This document shows, in pieces, positions 1 to 8,758 of a DNA stretch of 38,760 nucleotides. Each line of letters begins with the position of its first letter. Position 1 is the stretch's first letter. Source of the stretch: an uncultured Roseivirgaceae bacterium (GTDB lineage Bacteria; Bacteroidota; Bacteroidia; Cytophagales; Cyclobacteriaceae). Both the position numbers and the translations under genes were made by a program. The stretch is from positions 1 to 38,760 of the forward strand of contig CAYORY010000001.1 in assembly GCA_964406435.1 (NCBI GenBank). The letters are read 5' to 3'. A model generated the notes under the pieces. That model was given only the letters and a program-made list of their open reading frames with translations. It did not search any database and was not told where the DNA came from.

Positions 1-202
1 CTACCATTCCACCAAAAGAAATTCCGATAATCACGAAGGGTTCGTTAGTGTTAATTTGTTCCGAAAATCGGATTGCATAGTCTTGAATTGTCTCGTTACG
101 TTCTGGTTCAATCCATTGCAGTGGTATTATCTCGAAATCGAGACTTAGCTCTGAAAAGACTCGTTCATCAACACCTAAGCCACCTATTCCGTATACTTTC
201 AA
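1..202 (-). CDS. alpha/beta-hydrolase fold protein, N-terminal part only (gene runs off the left edge); cassette-borne
   Basis: The minus frame is open to the window edge. From a TTG at 202-200 it reads LKVYGIGGLGVDERVFSELSLDFEIIPLQWIEPERNETIQDYAIRFSEQINTNEPFVIIGISFGGMV. GISFGG is a GxSxG nucleophile elbow. A stop codon lies immediately upstream, so the start must be non-ATG. Confidence 0.6.
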   Translation of the reverse strand, partial: MKVYGIGGLGVDERVFSELSLDFEIIPLQWIEPERNETIQDYAIRFSEQINTNEPFVIIGISFGGMV

Positions 203-224
203 AACTTGATCTGGGGATTATGAG

Positions 225-456
225 AGGTAACGACCATGTATGAGGCGTGTGCTCTCACTCAGTGGACAGCACTAAAATAGTGAAGTCTGCCGGTGCTTCC
301 AAAGTTTGTAGAAAGCAGTGCGTTCTGAAGTGAAAAAATCCCGCGAACTGATGTATCCAAACCGCACAAATCTTTCTCGGCGGCTGACTCACGGTCAAGT
401 CCTGATGTGGTTTGTAGAAAGCATGTAAGCACATGCCTTCATACATAATGTTACAG
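225..456 (-). repeat. attC-like recombination site A (232 nt)
   Basis: The arm TAACGACCATGTATGAGGC (228-246) pairs with GCCTTCATACATAATGTTA (435-453), leaving an unpaired spacer and one bulged base. The conserved module AGCACTAAAATAGTGAAGTCTGCC lies at 268-291. The site sits between two cassette ORFs. Confidence 0.75.
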
Positions 457-849
457 ACCGTTCTTCAGTTGGCCGTTTGCCTGTTGAGAAAGTTCGAGTT
501 CACCAGTTCCAGAAGCGACCAAGTTGAAAAGAGGTTCGCCAGTTAGATGTTCAGGGTACAAAATCCGAGAGTTAAAAAGAGTTGAGTTAGCCAGTTCAGG
601 TTGTAGATGACCGTTGAGTAGGCTTGAAAGTTCCGTCCAGAAAGTTGGATCGTTCGTCAAGTCGTTAGAAACCTCATAAAGTGTTCCGTTCGAGTCAATA
701 AAGACGAAAAAATAGTCGTCAACAAATGGCCCTCCTTCGATTGTGTATTCGCCGATAAGTTGAATGGACTCTAGTTCGATCGACCAAGAAGTTAGGTTGT
801 TCTCAGTTAGCTCCAGTTGTCCGTTCCGAATCTTGAGTTTTGCAGTCAT
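451..849 (-). CDS. hypothetical cytoplasmic protein (cassette cargo, about 132 aa)
   Basis: This is ORF 451..864 trimmed to MTAKLKIRNG (ATG 849-847), because the upstream codons fall inside attC-B. The stop TAA (453-451) lies inside the attC-A core GTTACAG. No recognisable motif. Confidence 0.55.
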   Translation of the reverse strand: MTAKLKIRNGQLELTENNLTSWSIELESIQLIGEYTIEGGPFVDDYFFVFIDSNGTLYEVSNDLTNDPTFWTELSSLLNGHLQPELANSTLFNSRILYPEHLTGEPLFNLVASGTGELELSQQANGQLKNGL

Positions 850-852
850 GGT

Positions 853-1087
853 CTGTAACGCCAAGCTAGCAGTTTGTGCGCCCTCGGCTTATAAAGAGCA
901 CTAAAGTAGCGAAACTGCCCAACCACCACAAAAGCCGCTACGAAGAAATGCGTTCCCCAAGATAAAGACCAGAACCACAGAAAGGGCTAGCAGCACAAAG
1001 GTCTCAGAATGGGTAGTGAAGCGGGCAATTAACCGATGAAACTTGCAGATTGCTCATTTGGCGCATAACTGCTAGCGATTGTTAGTA
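853..1087 (-). repeat. attC-like recombination site B (235 nt)
   Basis: The arm TAACGCCAAGCTAGCAGTTTGTGCGCC (856-) pairs with GGCGCATAACTGCTAGCGATTGTTA (-1084). The conserved module AGCACTAAAGTAGCGAAACTGCCC lies at 897-920. The interior closely resembles attC-D. Confidence 0.75.
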
Positions 1088-1113
1088 GCTTTATTTTCGT
1101 TTTTGTTAACCTG

Positions 1114-1605
1114 TTAGAAGATGGTCAGCACGATGGTCTCAAAAAAAGCAAAGATGTTAGCCTTCTTTGTTCGTGTACAGAGGCTGGTTGTTAAATACTC
1201 ATCTGTTTTAGTACCAAGTCGAAATAGTTCGTTAGTGAGGTATCCATAAACTAGATGAGTTGTCCCCTCATCAAACCAGTTCCCACAATCAGCCCCACCG
1301 CCGGTTGTTCTGATCTTTAAAACTTCAGAGTCCCTAAACCTGTTCTTGCCTTTCTGAATGGATTTTACTTCGAATTCAAATTCGTAAATGTTATAGTCAA
1401 TATTACGAGTCTCGCCAGTTCCAGTCGTATATGATTCAGTAGTTGGGTATTCGGTGATTTTCGTAACAGTTCCCCGAAAAACAATGTCTGAATGTTTTTG
1501 AGCTTTGAAAATCCCAACTCGTCCGCAAGAACAAGCCATCACCTCAGTTGTTCCGATGAGGAGAAAAATTAGTAAAGTCAGAAGAGTTCTCTGCGTGAAG
1601 GTCAT
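1114..1605 (-). CDS. secreted TIMP/NTR-like protein (cassette cargo, about 163 aa)
   Basis: This is ORF 1114..1656 trimmed to MTFTQRTLLTLLIFLLIGTTEVMA|CSCG, because the upstream codons lie in attC-C. The signal peptide has a VMA cleavage motif that would expose an N-terminal Cys-x-Cys. The following sequence, CSCGRVGIFKAQKHSDIVFRGTV, resembles the N-terminus of mature TIMP-2 as recalled from memory ([24 protein letters not shown]). Confidence 0.55.
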   Translation of the reverse strand: MTFTQRTLLTLLIFLLIGTTEVMACSCGRVGIFKAQKHSDIVFRGTVTKITEYPTTESYTTGTGETRNIDYNIYEFEFEVKSIQKGKNRFRDSEVLKIRTTGGGADCGNWFDEGTTHLVYGYLTNELFRLGTKTDEYLTTSLCTRTKKANIFAFFETIVLTIF

Positions 1606-1608
1606 TGC

Positions 1609-1843
1609 TACTAACGACCAGCTATCGGGCGTATGTCCGCAGCTAGTGAATAGCACTAAAGTAGTGAAATCTGCCGAAGCTCACAACGGTTCCAAATGGC
1701 ATTGCGTTCTGAAAATTAAAACTCCTGCGCTCAAAAGCTGGTAGAAAGCACCGCCGTATCTCAGCGGCAGATATCACGGTCGAGTTGCACTGAAACCATC
1801 CAGAATGCACTGAGACATATGCCCGATCAGCATTTTGTTAGCA
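1609..1843 (-). repeat. attC-like recombination site C (235 nt)
   Basis: The arm TAACGACCAGCTATCGGGCGTATGTC (1612-1637) pairs with GACATATGCCCGATCAGCATTTTGTTA (1814-1840). There is an inner pairing of GTGAAATCTGCCG with CGGCAGATATCAC. The conserved module lies at 1652-1675. Confidence 0.8.
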
Positions 1844-1846
1844 TCT

Positions 1847-2494
1847 TTATTTTAGTCGATAAGAAGCGGAAAATTGAAATGTTCTATTCTGAAATTTCGG
1901 GTTGTTATCACTCGATATTGGGTTACCGAATTCATCCGTTAACTGCGGTGCGCTAATGACAGATGTGAAGCCGTGAGTGTATCTCATTTCAAGCATTAGA
2001 TTATCACTCAGAGAATAGCTTAACCCAGCAGACAGACCAAAATCAAAATTATTATCAAAGTTTTCTTTAACATCAATTGTTTCAGAATCGAACTTTGACT
2101 TTGCAGATAATAAATACCCAAATTCCGGTCCAGCTAAAAATGAAAGTTTGTCAATGACTTTATAACTCACGAGCACTGGAAAATTTATGTAGTTCAGATG
2201 TATAGATCCATCTCCTGAAGGTTGAGCACCTTGAATTCCTTCGGATGAATAGCCCTTATTTGAAAAAAGTAATTCCGGCCTTATTGCAAAATTGTCTGAG
2301 AGTTTAATTTGTCCAAAAAGACCAGCATGATATCCCAACCTGTATTTGTTATCGCTATTACTTCCATCAGGAGTATTATCGACCACATTGTTGACATAGT
2401 TAACTCCTGCCTTGATACCAAACTGTGTTTGCGCTTGAGTATATTCAAAACTGGAGACAAGGATAAGCAATAGTATTGTGGCTCTATTTTTCAT
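1847..2494 (-). CDS. outer-membrane beta-barrel (porin-family / OMP_b-brl_2-like) protein (cassette cargo)
   Basis: Signal peptide MKNRATILLLILVSSFEYTQAQ. The body shows alternating hydrophobic beta-strand patterns (FGIKAGVNY, GYHAGLFGQ, RPELLFSNKG). It ends in an aromatic-rich terminal strand (FSASYRLK). Confidence 0.65.
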   Translation of the reverse strand: MKNRATILLLILVSSFEYTQAQTQFGIKAGVNYVNNVVDNTPDGSNSDNKYRLGYHAGLFGQIKLSDNFAIRPELLFSNKGYSSEGIQGAQPSGDGSIHLNYINFPVLVSYKVIDKLSFLAGPEFGYLLSAKSKFDSETIDVKENFDNNFDFGLSAGLSYSLSDNLMLEMRYTHGFTSVISAPQLTDEFGNPISSDNNPKFQNRTFQFSASYRLK

Positions 2495-2515
2495 TACTTC
2501 GTTTGGTTTTATTGA

Positions 2516-2747
2516 TGCTAACGACCAGCTATGCGCCGTGTGTCCACAGCTGCTAGATCATGATAAAGATAGCGGAACTGCCCAACACCGATGAAGTGTC
2601 TACGAAGAAATGCGTTCCACAAGTCTAAGTCCAGAAGTAAAGAAGGAGGGGCGGGAGATGAAATATCAGAATGGGCGGTGTAGCGGGCGAGTCCCGATGC
2701 ACTTTCAGAAAGCACTATGACACATGGCGGATGAGCGTCTGTTAGAT
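2516..2747 (-). repeat. attC-like recombination site D (232 nt)
   Basis: The arm TAACGACCAGCTATGCGCCG (2519-) pairs with the CGGATGAGCGTCTGTTA end at 2744. A degenerate conserved module, ATGATAAAGATAGCGGAACTGCCC, lies at 2560-2583. The stop codon of the upstream cassette ORF (2744-2742) lies inside the GTTAGAT core. Confidence 0.75.
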
Positions 2748-3272
2748 GCTTTTAATTATGTGTTTTAATTCGTTCAGAAGTTCGTTCTCCTGTTCAGTTG
2801 GTTCAAGATAGCTTCCCTCAAGTCGAAATAGGTTGATCTTGTGTTCGGAGGTTAGACGCAGTTGAATGCTGTGAATGTATTCTTGAGAAGTTGGTTTAGT
2901 TGCAGTTGCATATTCATCAAAAAATTTCGAATGAAAGCCGATTTCTTTAATGTCCTCAAAACGTCTTGCCATTCTACCCCAGCGTTCTTCGATTGATTCA
3001 AATTTTCGATCTTTTAAGTTCAGAGTTAGGCTAGATTTCCCAGCAGTCTTAGATCCGGTTTTCAGCGTTATTATTATAACACCTATTAGAACAAGAATTC
3101 CCAAAATCAGAGAGAATGCCATTAGAAATAGAGATGGAAAAATCATGAAAACACCAAAAATTATGATCAAATAGCGGTTAGTGTTCGAATGCTTAATAGT
3201 AATCAGCTCCTCGGTCTGTTCAACCTTGTAGCCATTGTCGTTGAGAAGTTCGATAGAAGGTTTACTAAACAT
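2742..3272 (-). CDS. hypothetical membrane protein with a hydrophobic hairpin (2 TM) and a soluble C-terminal domain (cassette cargo)
   Basis: 176-aa ORF starting MFSKPSIELL. It has a long hydrophobic stretch, LIIIFGVFMIFPSLFLMAFSLILGILVLIGVIIITL. No family motif recognised. Confidence 0.55.
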   Translation of the reverse strand: MFSKPSIELLNDNGYKVEQTEELITIKHSNTNRYLIIIFGVFMIFPSLFLMAFSLILGILVLIGVIIITLKTGSKTAGKSSLTLNLKDRKFESIEERWGRMARRFEDIKEIGFHSKFFDEYATATKPTSQEYIHSIQLRLTSEHKINLFRLEGSYLEPTEQENELLNELKHIIKSI

Positions 3273-3289
3273 GCGGTAGTCAAAATTGC

Positions 3290-3421
3290 ATCTAACGGTC
3301 TCGTGTATGAGCAGTAGCGGATTTCAAGCCACATAACTGTCAGGTAGCACCGGCCTTTGATTAATAGTTTTAAGTTTCAAAATAGCACTGAACCCGCTAT
3401 TGCTTATACACAATGTTGTAT
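3290..3421 (-). repeat. attC-like recombination site E (132 nt; attC of the 5.2-kb cassette)
   Basis: The arm TAACGGTCTCGTGTATGAGCAGTAGCGG (3293-) pairs with CCGCTATTGCTTATACACAATGTTG (-3418). The length is classical for an attC. Its outer core, AATGTTGTATGCC (3412-3424), is the exact reverse complement of 8516-8528. Confidence 0.8.
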
Positions 3422-3542
3422 GCCCGTGCTTTTTCATTTTCTTTTTTGTCAGCGTTGGGGCAGCCGTACTCTTTGGCAAGTTTTGGCTTGTGTGGCTGCT
3501 TTGAGCGACTTGCCAATGTGTATGGATGCTTGCGGTTGCCAT

Positions 3543-6500
3543 TTAGTATCGTTCCAAGAATCTCCGTTGTCTTTCCCAGTCACCACTTTTTAAACAGCTT
3601 TCTATTCGCTCATTCAAATATTTCTTAATCGGGAGTAGTTTTATTCCCATTTGAGACTTATTGACTATAGCGAGAATATTTCGCCAGTCAGCTGCCTCAA
3701 TGTCTGCAAGTATTACATCCCCTGTTCCACTCGTTCCACTTCCTCTCCACATGATTTTGGAAAAAACCCCAACTTCCTGATTTATGGAAAGAAACAGCAA
3801 TAGCATTTCTTCAAATACTTCCTTCATTGAATGTCTTGCGATGTCCACAGCAACATTTACTTTTTGATGATCACTGTTGTTTGCTCGTACAAACTGAAAT
3901 AGAAAGTCCTTTGCCTTTTCCTTTGAATCTTCTGGTATATTTCTAAAGAAGGAGTTACAGAAGTGGTCGAGAATTCCGAAGTATGGTTCTCGCTCAATTA
4001 CTAAATCAAACACTTCAGTCAACACTGGTTCAATGCCATCTACTTGCCAAACAAATCCTAATCTTCTGTGATCTCCCGATAATCCAAATTTTCTTTCTGA
4101 GAATAAACTTTCTACGTATTCCATTAAGAACTGAGGGTCTTGCTTTAGAATGTTGAACATTCCTTTCCCTTCATAGTCAAAGTGGTTGTGAATCTTATCT
4201 TGTTGGATATACGCTTTCTTGATTAGGTCAATGTTATCCCCCAATTTGTCAAAATGAGTGCTGAAAAAGTCCATCCAAACCTGCAAGCCTGTGCCGTTCT
4301 CATTTTTCTCTACAATTTTTCTCAGAACAACTTGAAACAGGTTGGGTTCAATTGATAGAAACCGTTGCAGCCTGTCAAAATGGACTGTGTTCGAACCACT
4401 CATATTGCTTACCGTGTTCACTATAGCGTCAACGTAGCCCTTAGTCAGCAATGAATCCTCCAAATAATCGTAGAACGATAGCTCCCAATGAGCTTTAAGA
4501 TTGAAATCTTTACTTTGGATTATTGCCCAAATGTGCTCTGAAGATTCTGCAGTTTTCAGATGGTTTCGAAATACAACTCTCGGAATGTAATTTATTGTGT
4601 TATCAATTGCGATAACCTGATTTAATAGTTCACAGCCCAAATGAAAATCAAGACTGCAATTTTCGTCAATCACGAAATCAAGTGAATTATTATAATTCCA
4701 TTCATTCTTAGCTTTCTCCTTCAAGAACGTGAAAACTTTGATGAATTCTTCTACCTCAGTCCTTGTTTTGAAAACAAACGAAGTTCTTATTTCAGCTTCC
4801 TTCAGTCTTTCGTACTCTCGATAATCTTCGTATTCGTACATTTCCTTATCACGCAATATATCCCAATCAATTTTTAAATAGGTTTCGTAATCTGCATTGG
4901 TAAATGACTCTGCTAATGATGAAAATGAAGGGTGCAAAACAGAGTTCCTCTTACACCATCTTATCTGTTCGTGAACATACCTACAGTGTTCGAAATTATC
5001 GGGTGATAAATGCCTTTCAATTATGTCAATAACGTAAGGAACATCAAATTCCATTACCTCCCTAAGCACGTCTGGACTTACACTGGCATAACTCTGAAGG
5101 AGGCTGAAAGACTCGGCAGGAGAGTTGTTGAAGTCGTTTGCTACCGACACCCAAATATTTTTTCGGAACTCCTGGATTTCTTGACTATTTGGAATGGGAT
5201 ACTCATACCAATAAAACGAGTGATTGCGGCCTCCTTTTGTGTGTCGGAATTTGAAGGATAAAAATGTTTTAGATAATTCATAAAAAATAGAGGCACAGAG
5301 GTTGTCCTTTTTGTTTAAACCATCCAATAGTATTTGAAACAAAATTGACTGTCTTGCAAATCTGAACCTCTCATCATCTCTGTCAAACAGAAGCTGCTCA
5401 CGAATTTTGTGAATCAGTTCCGGTACATGCTCCGGCTTTTTCCGTACATATTCAATAGCCAATTCTAATGCATCGTTTAGATTGTTTGGAAATCGAAAAA
5501 ACTCTCCAAGCAACTCAATGACTTTATTCTTTTCATATGAAAAAGCATTGTTCTCATAAGTCACCTCAAAGCTTTCAGAAGTGGCATTTTCTAATGATTC
5601 TATAATGCCATAAATAAACGCCAATGATTCAGTTGACAGATAATACCAAAAAGCCGACAGAAATTTGAACCCTTTTTCTTCGTCATTCTTGATAGACTTC
5701 CAATGGTTTTGCAGATGTGGACGCAGTTTGTCCATTACTTTTTGCACTCCAAACGTGTTGTTTGCCGGAATCACACAATCTTTGAAGCGACTACTGTTGC
5801 TATCAAAATATTTACTCAGCAATACTTCAAATGAAAGTAGATTGTCCTTGATGAATGCCTTATAGAAGAAATAGGTTGATAAATTTTGCTCAGGAATTTT
5901 CACATGTTCAAACTGTATTTCAACCAATTCCAGTTTGTCTAGTTTATCTATAGCATCTATAAAGTGTGCATAGTCAATTTCAAAATTGTCAAGTATGGAG
6001 GTCACTAATTCCTTGTTCTTGTATGGGATGGTATAGAAGAATGCAATCAGACCAAGGCAGTTAATATTCAAGTCTTTCGCAAACTCCCCATCATCCTTGA
6101 TAAACGTTGAGAAGTAGTTTTCAAATAAATCTGATACATCTGCCAAGGCATATATATTCTGTTCAGCCTTTGCAAGTAGGGCAGTCATTATTGCCAATCG
6201 CGGATTTCCATCCGCAATGCGAACAATTTCATTGTGATAATCCTGATTTAGAATTTCGAAAGGCGTTGCCTTAACAATATCCGTAATCTGCTCATCTGAG
6301 AACTTGGATAAGTCTATTCTTTTGGGCGAAAATTCTTGACATAGTATTCCAATATCTTGGAACGCATAGTCTCTGACTGTAATCAGAATCTTTAACTTGC
6401 CTTTTTGGGTTGCTCTATAAAAAGTTGTTATTTGATTGAAAGCATCAATCCTATTTGCATCATCAACGAAAAGTATATGGTCCTTTTCGGAATCGAAATA

Positions 6501-7265
6501 CTGAAACAAATCATCGAGTAGTGTATGATGCTTATACGAAACACAATAAGCATCAAATTCATTGTTCTCCGCAAGGAATGCTTTTATCGCTTCGAGAGCT
6601 AATTTGGTTTTGCCAATTCCTGGCGCACCAGTCAGAATAATAAAATCATTCTGATGTATTGATTCGTTGAGGGTCTTGAGTTCTTCTTCCCGATGCAGGA
6701 ACGTATTATCAAGAGGGGTAGAGATGCCCGCGGATGCCTTGTTGTATTCTGCAATGAATTTTTCTATTGAAACAATTTGTCCAGTGTCTAATGGTAACCC
6801 CAAATACTCGTGGGTTAAATCCCTATGGTTCAAATGGAGTTCTATTGCCAACCAATCCAGATTGTAAATAGTAAGTACAATTCGGGTGTTAGCCAAAAGG
6901 TCATTTAACGCTTTTGTTTCCTTTGCTTTAGGATTGAAATTGACACAAAGAATAATCTCGGCTATTTGATTTACAGGAATGCCAGTCTTCGATTCATTGA
7001 GGCACTTTTGTACATCTTTTTTTAACTTGGAGAATCCATCTGAAACATTTGTAGAATGTTCAACGAAAATGAACTTACCATTTGGAAGAAGCAAAAAGGT
7101 ATCGGGAGTACCAGGTACAGTTTTCTGTTTGCCACTTTGGCTCCCGGCTCTTACTAAAGCCGAATAGTTACTATTCCTCAAAGCAAGAAAACTATCGCAT
7201 AACTCTTGGAAAGCAGCCGAGTTAATTGCTTTTAAAGCTTCTTCTATTGATTGTAGTCTACTCAC
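3543..7265 (-). CDS. STAND-class P-loop NTPase with a nuclease-like N-terminal domain and a long helical C-terminal domain (Avs/NLR-like candidate defence protein)
   Basis: 1240-aa ORF. Walker A is LTGAPGIGKTKLA (GAPGIGKT = nt 6606-6629). Walker B is HILFVDDANR (aa 263-272). A GxP-type motif, ADGNPRLAIM (GNPRLA = nt 6192-6209), resembles the NB-ARC GLPLA motif. The N-terminal about 170 aa contain PGTPDTF...FIFVEHST, reminiscent of PD-(D/E)xK nucleases. The C-terminal about 850 aa are helix-rich, with no catalytic motif seen. Confidence 0.85.
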   Translation of the reverse strand: MSRLQSIEEALKAINSAAFQELCDSFLALRNSNYSALVRAGSQSGKQKTVPGTPDTFLLLPNGKFIFVEHSTNVSDGFSKLKKDVQKCLNESKTGIPVNQIAEIILCVNFNPKAKETKALNDLLANTRIVLTIYNLDWLAIELHLNHRDLTHEYLGLPLDTGQIVSIEKFIAEYNKASAGISTPLDNTFLHREEELKTLNESIHQNDFIILTGAPGIGKTKLALEAIKAFLAENNEFDAYCVSYKHHTLLDDLFQYFDSEKDHILFVDDANRIDAFNQITTFYRATQKGKLKILITVRDYAFQDIGILCQEFSPKRIDLSKFSDEQITDIVKATPFEILNQDYHNEIVRIADGNPRLAIMTALLAKAEQNIYALADVSDLFENYFSTFIKDDGEFAKDLNINCLGLIAFFYTIPYKNKELVTSILDNFEIDYAHFIDAIDKLDKLELVEIQFEHVKIPEQNLSTYFFYKAFIKDNLLSFEVLLSKYFDSNSSRFKDCVIPANNTFGVQKVMDKLRPHLQNHWKSIKNDEEKGFKFLSAFWYYLSTESLAFIYGIIESLENATSESFEVTYENNAFSYEKNKVIELLGEFFRFPNNLNDALELAIEYVRKKPEHVPELIHKIREQLLFDRDDERFRFARQSILFQILLDGLNKKDNLCASIFYELSKTFLSFKFRHTKGGRNHSFYWYEYPIPNSQEIQEFRKNIWVSVANDFNNSPAESFSLLQSYASVSPDVLREVMEFDVPYVIDIIERHLSPDNFEHCRYVHEQIRWCKRNSVLHPSFSSLAESFTNADYETYLKIDWDILRDKEMYEYEDYREYERLKEAEIRTSFVFKTRTEVEEFIKVFTFLKEKAKNEWNYNNSLDFVIDENCSLDFHLGCELLNQVIAIDNTINYIPRVVFRNHLKTAESSEHIWAIIQSKDFNLKAHWELSFYDYLEDSLLTKGYVDAIVNTVSNMSGSNTVHFDRLQRFLSIEPNLFQVVLRKIVEKNENGTGLQVWMDFFSTHFDKLGDNIDLIKKAYIQQDKIHNHFDYEGKGMFNILKQDPQFLMEYVESLFSERKFGLSGDHRRLGFVWQVDGIEPVLTEVFDLVIEREPYFGILDHFCNSFFRNIPEDSKEKAKDFLFQFVRANNSDHQKVNVAVDIARHSMKEVFEEMLLLFLSINQEVGVFSKIMWRGSGTSGTGDVILADIEAADWRNILAIVNKSQMGIKLLPIKKYLNERIESCLKSGDWERQRRFLERY

Positions 7266-7272
7266 GATGATT

Positions 7273-7989
7273 TTAAATAAGCTTGTTAAGTTCGATTTTT
7301 AGCGAGTCCTTGAGTGTTTTTGAATCGGAATAGATTAAGAATCTTTGAGATTGGATATCAATAGGCAGATCTTTAGGTTCCTTTGAAATTAGTATGACTG
7401 ATTTGTCCAGTGCTTGAGCCACCCCAAGCTCATATAAGACATTAGGATTCCTTCCATTAATGTTAGCTATTATGATTCTTGCCTTGACCATATACCTAAG
7501 CATTTCAGGGAATATATCACCCTTAAACTCTTGTTCATCTCCTCTGATGCAATTAAACCCTGCACTTGAACAAACCTCCTTGATGGTCATAAACTCATTA
7601 TAAAATTGGCTATTAAAAGGAGTTAAGACAAAAACCAATCTGTTATCGATTTTAAGTTCATTCTCAGATATTCCATTTGCCTGAAGAAATTCGGAATAAT
7701 GAATTCTTCGATTAGTGCCCAAAGACTGATTATTTTCAAGATATTCCTGTCGTAGTAAAAGATGATTAACATCCCTCCATCGTTCTTCATTTTGCACTAA
7801 TCTGTCATTTAGTCCATACATTTTTTGCTCAAGAGAATGCCTTATGCTTTCAAGCATGGCCTTATTTTCTTCGCTATCATATCTGCTTTTCTTGAGATTG
7901 GAGTACAAAATGAAAGCTATTACACTAACGGAAATGCTTGCAATTGCTGTTATGATTATCGTAATGCTGCTAATTTCCATTTGACTCAT
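7273..7989 (-). CDS. membrane-anchored protein with a C-terminal nucleoside 2-deoxyribosyltransferase-like / TIR-like domain
   Basis: This is ORF 7273..8028; the likely start is MSQMEISS (ATG 7989-7987) or MEISS (7980). It has one N-terminal TM helix (ITIIITAIASISVSVIAFILY) and a coiled-coil linker. The domain (aa 129-240) reads VFVLTPFNSQ...KARIIIANINGRNPNVLYELGVAQALDKSVILISKE...LPIDI. The NVxYExG motif, with Glu at nt 7429-7431, is typical of that fold. Confidence 0.75.
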   Translation of the reverse strand: MSQMEISSITIIITAIASISVSVIAFILYSNLKKSRYDSEENKAMLESIRHSLEQKMYGLNDRLVQNEERWRDVNHLLLRQEYLENNQSLGTNRRIHYSEFLQANGISENELKIDNRLVFVLTPFNSQFYNEFMTIKEVCSSAGFNCIRGDEQEFKGDIFPEMLRYMVKARIIIANINGRNPNVLYELGVAQALDKSVILISKEPKDLPIDIQSQRFLIYSDSKTLKDSLKIELNKLI

Positions 7990-8392
7990 TTTTTGGTTCG
8001 ATATTCTCAATTTGGGCTTTTTCTTCACTATTCAACAGAATATCCATTGATTGTATTAAGGAGAAAATTGATATTGCCATATTCAAACAAAGTAGAAGCA
8101 CCCAGTAGTTGCTTTTATTTTCAAATAGCTTTAAACTTTTTCGCCACAAAATCACAACTACAACGGCCAGAACGATAAAAGCAATCGTGTAGAATAGCCC
8201 CGCACTCGGGTCTTTAGGTTCAGATATAGTAAATGCAATTAGAAATGATATAGAAAGGAAAATCATGTCAACCGGCAGTTCGCATATTGCCTGAATTAAA
8301 TTGGGAACCTCAATGTTTCTGTCAATCGCCAGTTTCAGAACGAATGCTAATACAAGCAATGTCAGGGGTAATATTATTTCCAAATGTTCCAT
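7970..8392 (-). CDS. small integral membrane protein (about 4 TM), first gene of the three-gene cassette operon
   Basis: 140-aa ORF starting MEHLEIILPLTLLVLAFVLKLAI. Four hydrophobic segments are followed by an acidic/polar tail. Its stop overlaps the start region of the next gene, which suggests translational coupling. Confidence 0.6.
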   Translation of the reverse strand: MEHLEIILPLTLLVLAFVLKLAIDRNIEVPNLIQAICELPVDMIFLSISFLIAFTISEPKDPSAGLFYTIAFIVLAVVVVILWRKSLKLFENKSNYWVLLLCLNMAISIFSLIQSMDILLNSEEKAQIENIEPKNESNGN

Positions 8393-8518
8393 TTATCTCA
8401 TTTCAGTTATTCTGTCGAGCGTTGGCAAAAAAATAGCTCTTTTGGTTTTTCTTGCGTTGGCTCTGCGTGTCTGCAAAAACCAAATGTGCTATTTGTGCGG
8501 TCGGCTTTTTTGCATGGC

Positions 8519-8758
8519 ATACAACATTAATATAACGCGCACAGTGCGCGTTATTTCCATTTCATATTTTCGAGTGGTTACAGACCTATCTTTCTGATAG
8601 TCAGTGATAAATCCAAGTAATAAACGTTTGTAAGCGTTTATTGTCGGATATAAGCGCCACTCTCCCCACCAAGATAGCACCTATTCATGAATGACGGGGT
8701 GGTCGAGAACCTTTCGTATACCTAGGCGTCACTGAGCGTTTCGCCCCCATCGTTAACT
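8519..8758 (-). repeat. attC-like recombination site F (240 nt; outermost site of the array)
   Basis: The ends are ATACAAC (8519-8525) and GTTAACT (8752-8758). The right half is homologous to attC-A/C: GGTCGAG at 8701-8707 versus 1778-1784, CACTGAG at 8730-8736 versus 1808-1814, and a CGCCC..CGTTA end. It contains a perfect 11-bp-stem palindrome, ATAACGCGCAC-A-GTGCGCGTTAT, at 8532-8554. It is more diverged than A-E. Confidence 0.6.

Follow-up and report, generated by a model that had tools for sequence, protein, structure and literature searches.

The first 8.6 kb of contig CAYORY010000001.1, from an uncultured Roseivirgaceae bacterium (Cytophagales), are a real integron-style cassette array of an apparently undescribed Cytophagales family. 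The window, that is, the whole stretch of 38,760 nucleotides that was analysed, is the entire contig (1–38760), and the array leaves it at the left end. We interpret positions 1–8586, read on the minus strand, as the promoter-proximal end of a chromosomal integron-like array, and put the probability of this reading, taken jointly with the reading of the enzyme given below, at about 0.7. In function and anatomy the system is an integron, with an attI site, attC sites defined by structure, a G|TT footprint, and compact co-oriented cassettes. Behind the attI-like site (junction G at 8525) come five complete cassettes and a sixth that is truncated by the contig end. The G+C content of the array region is 0.37–0.43, and that of most of the remaining contig 0.40–0.51. 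An earlier note, made from the sequence alone, had proposed an integron-style cassette array here. The proposal is borne out by a boundary rule that holds across about 30 genomes, by covariation in the stems of the sites, by an attI-like site that obeys the same rule, and by polymorphism and sharing of cassettes.

In the model that we propose, each cassette would consist of one gene or a small operon together with its own folded recombination site. It would leave as a circle via recombination between successive attC-like hairpins and enter an array at the attI-like site, at G|TT. As the exchange would take place at the invariant GTT, the first nine nucleotides of a linear cassette (TTNNNNNNN) would be those that pair, in the circle, with the R'' box of the same cassette (NNNNNNNAAC). 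The enzyme would be a tyrosine recombinase of about 290 residues, Xer/IntI-like but without the IntI-specific insertion, rather than a canonical IntI. The array of the window would presumably be served by this enzyme in trans from another locus, or else be an orphan.

On balance, we favour the view that these arrays form a distinct, previously unrecognised integron class, missed by detection keyed on the IntI insertion and on attC sites of at most 200 nt. Such a class would have a Xer/IntI-like integrase that never had, or has lost, the IntI-specific domain and is co-oriented with the cassettes, a zinc-ribbon partner, a 10-bp R box, and in most sites a structured interior of about 170 nt. It would be widespread in marine Cytophagales and carry defence-type cargo. 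Literature searches yielded no description of such arrays in Cytophagales.

Cassette boundaries

Read on the minus strand, a 5' box GTTNNNNNN(N) lies just before each open reading frame (ORF) of the window array, and a 3' box (N)NNNNNNAAC just after the same ORF. The five reverse-complementary pairs reported earlier (850–859/450–459, 1607–1615/1081–1089, 2514–2522/1837–1845, 3288–3296/2741–2749 and 8516–8528/3412–3424) are all exact. The fifth had been described as running three nucleotides further than the others. This extra complementarity is real, but the bases (ATT/AAT) are the spacer of the attI-like site paired with that of the attC-like site E4, and not part of a box travelling with the cassette. 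An array walker, which starts at the attI-like G and seeks only the reverse complement of each 10-mer, recovered junction Gs at 8525, 3296, 2522, 1615, 859 and 231. The ORFs of the window cassettes are all co-oriented, and the stop codons at 451–453 and 2742–2744 do lie within the R'' box, that is, in the core. The ORF starts, placed by the earlier note 3–25 nt after a site, had to be corrected: the start codons of first ORFs are 10–28 nt past the junction G, and in the 5.2-kb cassette the first start codon is 133 nt past it.

Scanning species-representative genomes with a motif from the conserved interior of the long elements gave 118 loci, about two thirds of them chance matches. A subsequent nhmmer profile search found the long element in 37 of the fetched loci, from about 30 assemblies, all of Cytophagales or unclassified Bacteroidota; with the window and two loci fetched later this makes 40 loci with the element. 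The hosts include Marinoscillum, Reichenbachiella, Ekhidna, Fulvivirga, Marivirga, Rapidithrix, and metagenome-assembled genomes of Cyclobacteriaceae, Flammeovirgaceae and Roseivirgaceae. Matches to the window are confined to the elements, at 85–92% identity across genera (84–89% between E0 and the copies in Marinoscillum, Ekhidna and Reichenbachiella), and the cassette genes have no match at all. More than one element is present in 27 of the 40 loci, and none of these loci mixes strands. Related loci are cited below by their labels (L003 and so on).

The boundary rule, by which the 5' end of a cassette complements its own inverse core, holds in all five window cassettes and in 45 of 54 across genomes. 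The 54 are intervals shorter than 1.3 kb between consecutive elements in the window and related arrays, and those counted have, past the junction G, at least 8 nt perfectly complementary to the R'' box at the downstream end of the same cassette. In the control, only 0.45% of 2862 non-own pairings reach at least 8 nt. The complementarity is most often 9 nt long (8–9 nt, 11 nt once), so that the box is a sharp 10-nt unit, whereas R' and R'' inside one and the same element match over only 2–4 nt in 68 of 74 elements. In all 54 cassettes the array strand has the longest open frame, which covers a median of 97% of the cassette. A footprint in 45 of 54 intervals against 0.45% is as expected from circularised cassettes re-inserting at the conserved GTT, as in integrons; it puts the crossover at this GTT without resolution to one phosphodiester bond.

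The same test bears on the reading of the elements as ordinary intergenic repeats (repetitive extragenic palindromes and their mosaics, REP/BIME, or miniature inverted-repeat transposable elements, MITE-like) or as structured RNA (a terminator or a small RNA), with no cassette recombination. Such elements do not predict that the 5' flank of a gene complements a box downstream of the same gene, nor a conserved attI-like junction, nor cassettes shared from junction to junction. Scattered REP/MITE behaviour, named earlier as grounds for refutation, is not what we see: strands are mixed in no locus, and boundary complementarity is tied to each ORF.

Structure of the attC-like sites

The elements fall into two size classes, long ones of about 235 nt with a covarying inner helix and short ones of 100–137 nt. 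The four long elements of the window measure 229–231 nt from the junction G to the outer end of R'' and have a mean column identity of 71% when aligned. The short element E4 has the R box, the spacer and the long stem of the long class and lacks its conserved interior of about 170 nt. The length of the long class is beyond the usual attC range of 57–141 nt, and the default attC limit of IntegronFinder is 200 nt.

The imperfect palindromes with TAAC/GTTA, a long stem and a bulge, as described earlier, are confirmed, with a spacer of 4–5 nt and a single bulge. Folded as single-stranded DNA, the plus strand of E2 has an energy of −37.7 kcal/mol (z −2.88). In this fold an R box of 6 bp (CTAACG/TGTTAG) and a 4-nt spacer are followed by an L stem of 17 bp, whose 3' arm has one bulged C at about 1828, and by a large terminal structure. 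The plus strand of E4 (−20.8 kcal/mol, z −3.70) follows the same plan with a small terminal structure. In both E0 and E2 the single bulge is on the R''-L'' arm.

Covariation was assessed in an alignment of 68 distinct copies, taken as the plus (bottom) strand. AAC/GTT is invariant in all 68. Of the 17 pairs of the L stem, 14 show compensatory change, and of the 11 pairs of the inner helix (alignment columns 64–76 with 174–186), 7 do. Paired cells make up 86.7%, compared to 75.0% in shuffles, none of 500 of which reach 86.7%, and to 21–44% when the partners are slid.

As to the strand, there are 279 G.T pairs and 67 A.C pairs on the plus strand. Two G.T pairs are invariant on it (66–68 of 68 copies) and would be A.C mismatches on the gene strand. 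One is beside the R box and the other in the middle of the L stem (columns 11–252 and 27–234 of alignment A2, e.g. the 1616/1835 region of the window), and they may be recognition features rather than plain wobbles. The folding energy of the plus strand is slightly better than that of the minus strand. This, together with the wobble bias, hints that the strand antisense to the genes would be the folded one, like the bottom strand of attC.

The interior of the long elements contains frames of 50–70 codons, and a coding role was rejected, as the frame is not kept between near-identical copies. The conservation of this interior across genera suggests an extra function, one that is not known for classical attC, possibly host factor binding, regulation or cassette genesis.

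An RNA-level or protein-binding role in addition to recombination is possible, and the 85–92% identity of long elements across genera and the covarying inner helix are what the repeat or RNA reading can claim for itself. However, all the elements are in co-oriented arrays, the excess of wobble pairs is on the strand antisense to the genes, and an Rfam search of the elements gave nothing at gathering thresholds nor even at E≤1. As the sole explanation this reading is effectively refuted, and we consider it extremely improbable.

The attI-like site

The 3' part of the rightmost element of the window (8516–8590) reads AAATAACGCGCACTGTGCGCGTTATATTAAT G|TTGTATGCC. The junction G at 8525 is followed by the spacer ATTAAT (8526–8531), a 10-bp palindrome (8532–8541/8545–8554) and a degenerate upstream box, and the hairpin has an energy of −12.3 kcal/mol (z −4.7). 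The description of 8516–8586 (E5) as an ordinary short attC was rejected in favour of an attI-like site on the strength of its homology to the site next to the recombinase gene in other genomes. Such a homologous site is found 25–50 nt past a recombinase stop codon in ten loci (L032, L059, L105, L119–L122, L125, L126 and L127/L128). In these relatives it consists of a box GGTATATTTGAAAGG, a palindrome, an A+T-rich spacer of 6–7 nt and GTT. The palindrome arms covary between genomes: TAACGCGCAC/GTGCGCGTTA, TAAACGCC/GGCGTTTA, TAAGCGGAA/TTCCGCTTA and TATCACGC/GCGTGATA. The 10-mer starting from the attI-like GTT complements the R'' box of the first attC in L032, L059, L120, L122 and L125, and hence the site behaves as an insertion point. 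In L125, from a closed Ekhidna chromosome, the attI-like site is followed by 11 consecutive perfect cassettes with long attCs.

The box GGTATATTTGAAAGG sits between the recombinase stop codon and the palindrome (e.g. L119 10873–10887, L120 10877–10891). It contains TAnnTTTG in 13 of 14 sites and is degenerate in the window. This motif we take to be the Bacteroidetes −7 promoter consensus, and the box is a candidate for a cassette promoter (Pc), which in integrons drives cassettes that have no promoter of their own.

Upstream of the attI-like site of the window there is an SDR gene and a hairpin instead of a recombinase gene. The 11-nt TTGGATTTATC is the only stretch of the window that resembles the 3' end of the recombinase gene, as is also seen at the orphan attI-like sites of L109. 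The leader (window 8587–8705, L123 5912–6029) is 94.9% identical over 118 nt between the window and L123, a relative with an 83% identical SDR protein and the same recombinase-free arrangement; divergence is far greater in the flanking DNA. The stretch could have a function as a leader, or could have been exchanged recently. Metagenome scans for the attI leader of the window and for the attI palindrome found nothing.

The 10-mer GGTCTGTAAC is present at 6020–6029 of L123, where that contig stops. In L109 (6930–7700) the 3' fragment of an AraC gene and the attI-like site form a tandem duplicate with one cassette between the copies, and an IS91-like gene and a recombinase gene are inserted beside it. 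The contigs of L119, L123 and L128 end at or just past the attI junction; breaks at this place fit repeats or population heterogeneity.

The linked recombinase

As stated by the earlier note, the window has no detectable tyrosine recombinase: tblastn with IntI1 and with the array-linked recombinase found none in the 38.8 kb. The attribution of the crossover to IntI, on the other hand, is not supported. In the ten related loci, the recombinase beside the homologous attI-like site is without the IntI-specific insertion and stays below the cutoff of the integron-integrase model. These recombinases belong to a large family of about 287–296 residues with Pfam PF13495 and PF00589, and are transcribed in the direction of the cassettes, the attI-like site lying in the 3' flank of the gene. 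In the alignment the catalytic residues are kept, and about 30 residues of the IntI1 insertion and the stretch VVRRHHMYD are missing. The TIGR02249 score is 189–197 bits against a cutoff of 265, with the match split in two stretches (the matched profile parts are 242–315 for the L003 protein and 38–179 for the repaired L105 protein), whereas the IntI1 control scores 508 bits. The best family is NF040815, named 'site-specific tyrosine recombinase/integron integrase' by NCBI, and the best solved relatives are XerA (5hxy, 4a8e), then IntI4 (2a3v).

Two other recombinases were considered as array integrases and rejected. That of L109 is paired with the IS91-like gene and looks like part of another mobile element. 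That of L003 adjoins a second recombinase, with an IS110 element at the far end of the array, and probably also belongs to another mobile element.

A divergent zinc-ribbon gene (about 135 aa, DUF2116-like) precedes the recombinase in eight of the ten loci (L119–L122 and L125–L128). The proteins are 56–60% identical between genomes, and the gene is present in every full-length platform examined and missing from the window. The housekeeping genes upstream of this unit differ in each genome, indicating that the partner, the recombinase, attI and the array travel as one unit. In the OZ245881 genome one array is recombinase-linked (L120) and another goes with an orphan attI-like site (L109), which makes the supply of the enzyme in trans plausible.

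The presence of such recombinases also bears on a more conventional description, in which the array is of the kind known as CALIN, a cluster of attC sites lacking an integron integrase (Cury et al. 2016, PMC4889954), with long but ordinary attCs, a true IntI encoded elsewhere, and the short recombinase unrelated or secondary. The sites have the anatomy and the G|TT footprint of attC, a recombinase is absent from the window, and integrons have been reported in wider Bacteroidota (PMC8618304; Salinibacter ruber, PMC9024848). However, the attI-like site follows the stop codon of an insertion-less recombinase in ten loci with different chromosomal contexts, and the first cassette there fits the boundary rule. 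A tblastn search with IntI1 of the 118 scan loci, as distinct from whole genomes, gave the short type only, or unrelated recombinases in chance-matched loci. Moreover, what IntegronFinder surveys had reported from Bacteroidetes proper was In0 only, followed later by a single complete integron, in Salinibacter (PMC9024848). We regard the CALIN description as unlikely.

The reading of the window as an integron-type array served by an insertion-less recombinase has its own weak points. The proposed link between recombinase and array is one of synteny, observed in other genomes, and the window itself carries no recombinase gene. The search for a canonical intI covered the fetched loci and not complete related genomes, a point in favour of the CALIN description. 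In IntI the insertion reportedly contacts the extrahelical bases, and so the reading of bulged hairpins by an enzyme without it is left unexplained. The strand bias from wobble pairs leans largely on the two invariant G.T positions. Finally, a 16-nt insertion interrupts the conserved upstream box in the attI-like region of the window, and hence the platform of the window may be decaying. The insertion recreates, on the top strand, the 10-mer GGTCTGTAAC, which is the R'' box of the cassette 450–859.

Decay would be complete if the array were a fossil of the same origin, an inactive relic that has lost its recombinase, with a damaged attI-like region and cassettes fixed as chromosomal genes. This would agree with the absence of the recombinase, of which just the 11-nt stretch resembling its 3' end is left, with the 16-nt break in the box GGTATATTTGAAAGG, and with the same arrangement in L123, where the SDR protein is only 83% identical, suggesting old age. 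But the boundary boxes are perfect over 9–13 nt in all five cassettes, and in the attI-like site the palindrome, the spacer and the GTT are undamaged. In addition, one genome has orphan attI-like arrays as well as a recombinase-linked one, and contig breaks in or at the array, in this genome and in a relative, fit repeats or population heterogeneity. The fossil reading seems doubtful to us, and the array may still be active.

Mobility and cargo of the cassettes

Polymorphism of the cassettes is seen between L120 and L121: the recombinase protein is the same and attI is identical as far as GTTATG, after which the first cassettes differ. The same cassette is found at L110 3937–4475 and L122 20004–20546, with 88.8% identity over 539/543 nt from junction to junction and other neighbours. 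Within the array of L032 one cassette is duplicated (2197 and 5143). A comparison of strains behind recombinase P0021 gave no polymorphism, the neighbours being the same at all places shown.

The 5.2-kb cassette of the window contains three genes (3543–8392; Table 1) that, judging by their domains, are probably an anti-phage system packed as one cassette; in the nSTAND3 NTPase an N-terminal PD-(D/E)xK-like motif was recognised by eye. The other window cassettes encode small proteins without known families and an outer-membrane beta-barrel protein. Related arrays carry restriction-modification pairs and PIN toxins.

IS110-family transposase genes are located in or beside arrays (L003 598–1638; L122 15615–16544 and 17996–18925; L126 13693–14760). 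Their placement recalls the IS1111-attC elements, which target attC sites of classical integrons.

Table 1. Features of the window array, and zinc-ribbon genes of related loci (prefixed by the locus label)
Feature	Position	Strand	Remarks
Further cassette, 5' part	1–230	−	runs past the contig end; junction G 231 found by the walker
Partial ORF in the leftmost cassette	2–202	−	TTG start; alpha/beta-hydrolase-like N-terminus by eye; no Pfam match
Long attC-like site E0	231–459	−	R' G at 231; R'' box GGTCTGTAAC at 459–450
Cassette ORF, 132 aa, no known family	451–849	−	start codon directly after the 10-nt box; stop inside the R'' box
Long attC-like site E1	859–1089	−	element alignment, covariation set
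Cassette ORF, 163 aa, probable secreted protein or lipoprotein	1114–1605	−	weak TIMP-like match only
Long attC-like site E2	1615–1845	−	92.6% identical to the Marivirga lumbricoides copy
Cassette ORF, 215 aa, outer-membrane beta-barrel protein	1847–2494	−	PF13568
Long attC-like site E3	2522–2749	−	element alignment, covariation set
Cassette ORF, 176 aa, membrane protein, family unknown	2742–3272	−	stop codon inside the R'' box
Short attC-like site E4, 129 nt	3296–3424	−	found by the walker; fold
Coding part of the 5.2-kb cassette 3296–8524	3425–8524	−	three genes; boundaries GTTGTATGCC / GGCATACAAC
nSTAND3 NTPase, 1240 aa	3543–7265	−	
TIR-like / nucleoside-deoxyribosyltransferase-like protein	7273–8028	−	weak matches
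Membrane protein in the 5.2-kb cassette	7970–8392	−	
attI-like site	8525–8575	−	homology to recombinase-proximal sites; hairpin fold
R''-like 10-mer GGTCTGTAAC	8577–8586	−	same as the box of the cassette at 450–859
Conserved leader upstream of the attI-like site	8587–8705	−	contains TTGGATTTATC and hairpin 8623–8646
Zinc-ribbon gene	L119 9515–9925	divergent from recombinase	
Zinc-ribbon gene	L120 9504–9920	divergent from recombinase	
Zinc-ribbon gene	L122 9524–9925	divergent from recombinase	
Zinc-ribbon gene	L125 9515–9925	divergent from recombinase	
Zinc-ribbon gene	L126 9471–9887	divergent from recombinase	
Zinc-ribbon gene	L127 5526–5924	divergent from recombinase	

Implications

The IntI-specific domain serves both to define integrons and to find them, and is regarded as what makes the folded attC hairpin recognisable via its extrahelical bases. 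Here a complete platform, with an integrase, an attI-like site and cassettes with the G|TT footprint, is present across about 30 species genomes. If it runs on a recombinase without this domain, integron-type recombination can do without the domain, the descent of integrons from Xer-like enzymes can be tested directly, and current surveys undercount the cassette arrays of Bacteroidota. The arrays are also a pool of compact cassettes with defence, toxin and surface-protein genes. Published practice relies on the domain: intI genes were selected by it (Nemergut 2008, PMC2426708), and the insertion was called 'essential for integron function' (Smyshlyaev 2021, PMC8138268).

Comparison with known systems

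The integron criteria after Messier & Roy 2001 and IntegronFinder include an integrase with the IntI-specific additional domain. We found this domain neither in the window nor in the recombinases beside homologous arrays. The anatomy of attC is there, with AAC/GTT, the spacer, the covarying stem and the bulge on one arm, and so is the G|TT footprint. An attI beside the integrase is found in the relatives, and the window has the homologous site without an adjacent integrase gene.

Compared to Xer systems, the likeness is in an insertion-less Xer/XerA-like recombinase that in our arrays, too, would act on a hairpin- or dif-like site. Xer recombination on folded single-stranded DNA or on modules is known from the integration of CTX phage by XerCD and from the pdif modules of Acinetobacter plasmids. 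Unidirectional cassette arrays, an attI/attC pair and a boundary footprint centred on GTT are lacking from those systems. Further, Xer/dif sites are 28 bp long, with two 11-bp arms and a 6-bp centre, and inverted, whereas the sites described here are hairpins of 100–240 nt in direct orientation.

The definition of a CALIN fits the window taken by itself, which has five attC-like sites within 3.4 kb and, as far as tblastn shows, no recombinase anywhere in its 38.8 kb. The window differs in that it keeps an attI-like site and that most of its sites are above the size range of standard detectors.

In the Treponema denticola-type integrons the integrase is reportedly transcribed in the direction of the cassettes. 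Our platforms share this orientation; however, integrases of the Treponema type have the IntI insertion, and the attC sites that they use are ordinary in size.

The closest parallel is with the sedentary chromosomal integrons, such as the Vibrio cholerae superintegron with its VCR attC and IntIA. Both have long arrays of compact cassettes, mostly with a single ORF, that all point one way. In both, the sites are imperfect palindromes in which AAC/GTT is invariant, the spacer stays unpaired, the stem covaries and one arm has a bulge; the crossover is at G|TT, so that a cassette carries the complement of its own inverse core, attI sits beside the integrase gene, and the attC families are homogeneous. 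The cargo is also alike, with toxins, restriction-modification and defence-type genes; defence cargo has been reported for sedentary chromosomal integrons (bioRxiv 10.1101/2024.07.02.601686). The integrase of our arrays, however, is without the additional domain, fails TIGR02249, and is co-oriented with the cassettes, the attI-like site being 3' of it. A conserved divergent zinc-ribbon partner, the sharp 10-bp R box and the Cytophagales hosts further set these arrays apart, as do the attCs themselves, most of which are about 235 nt long and have a structured interior common to several genera.

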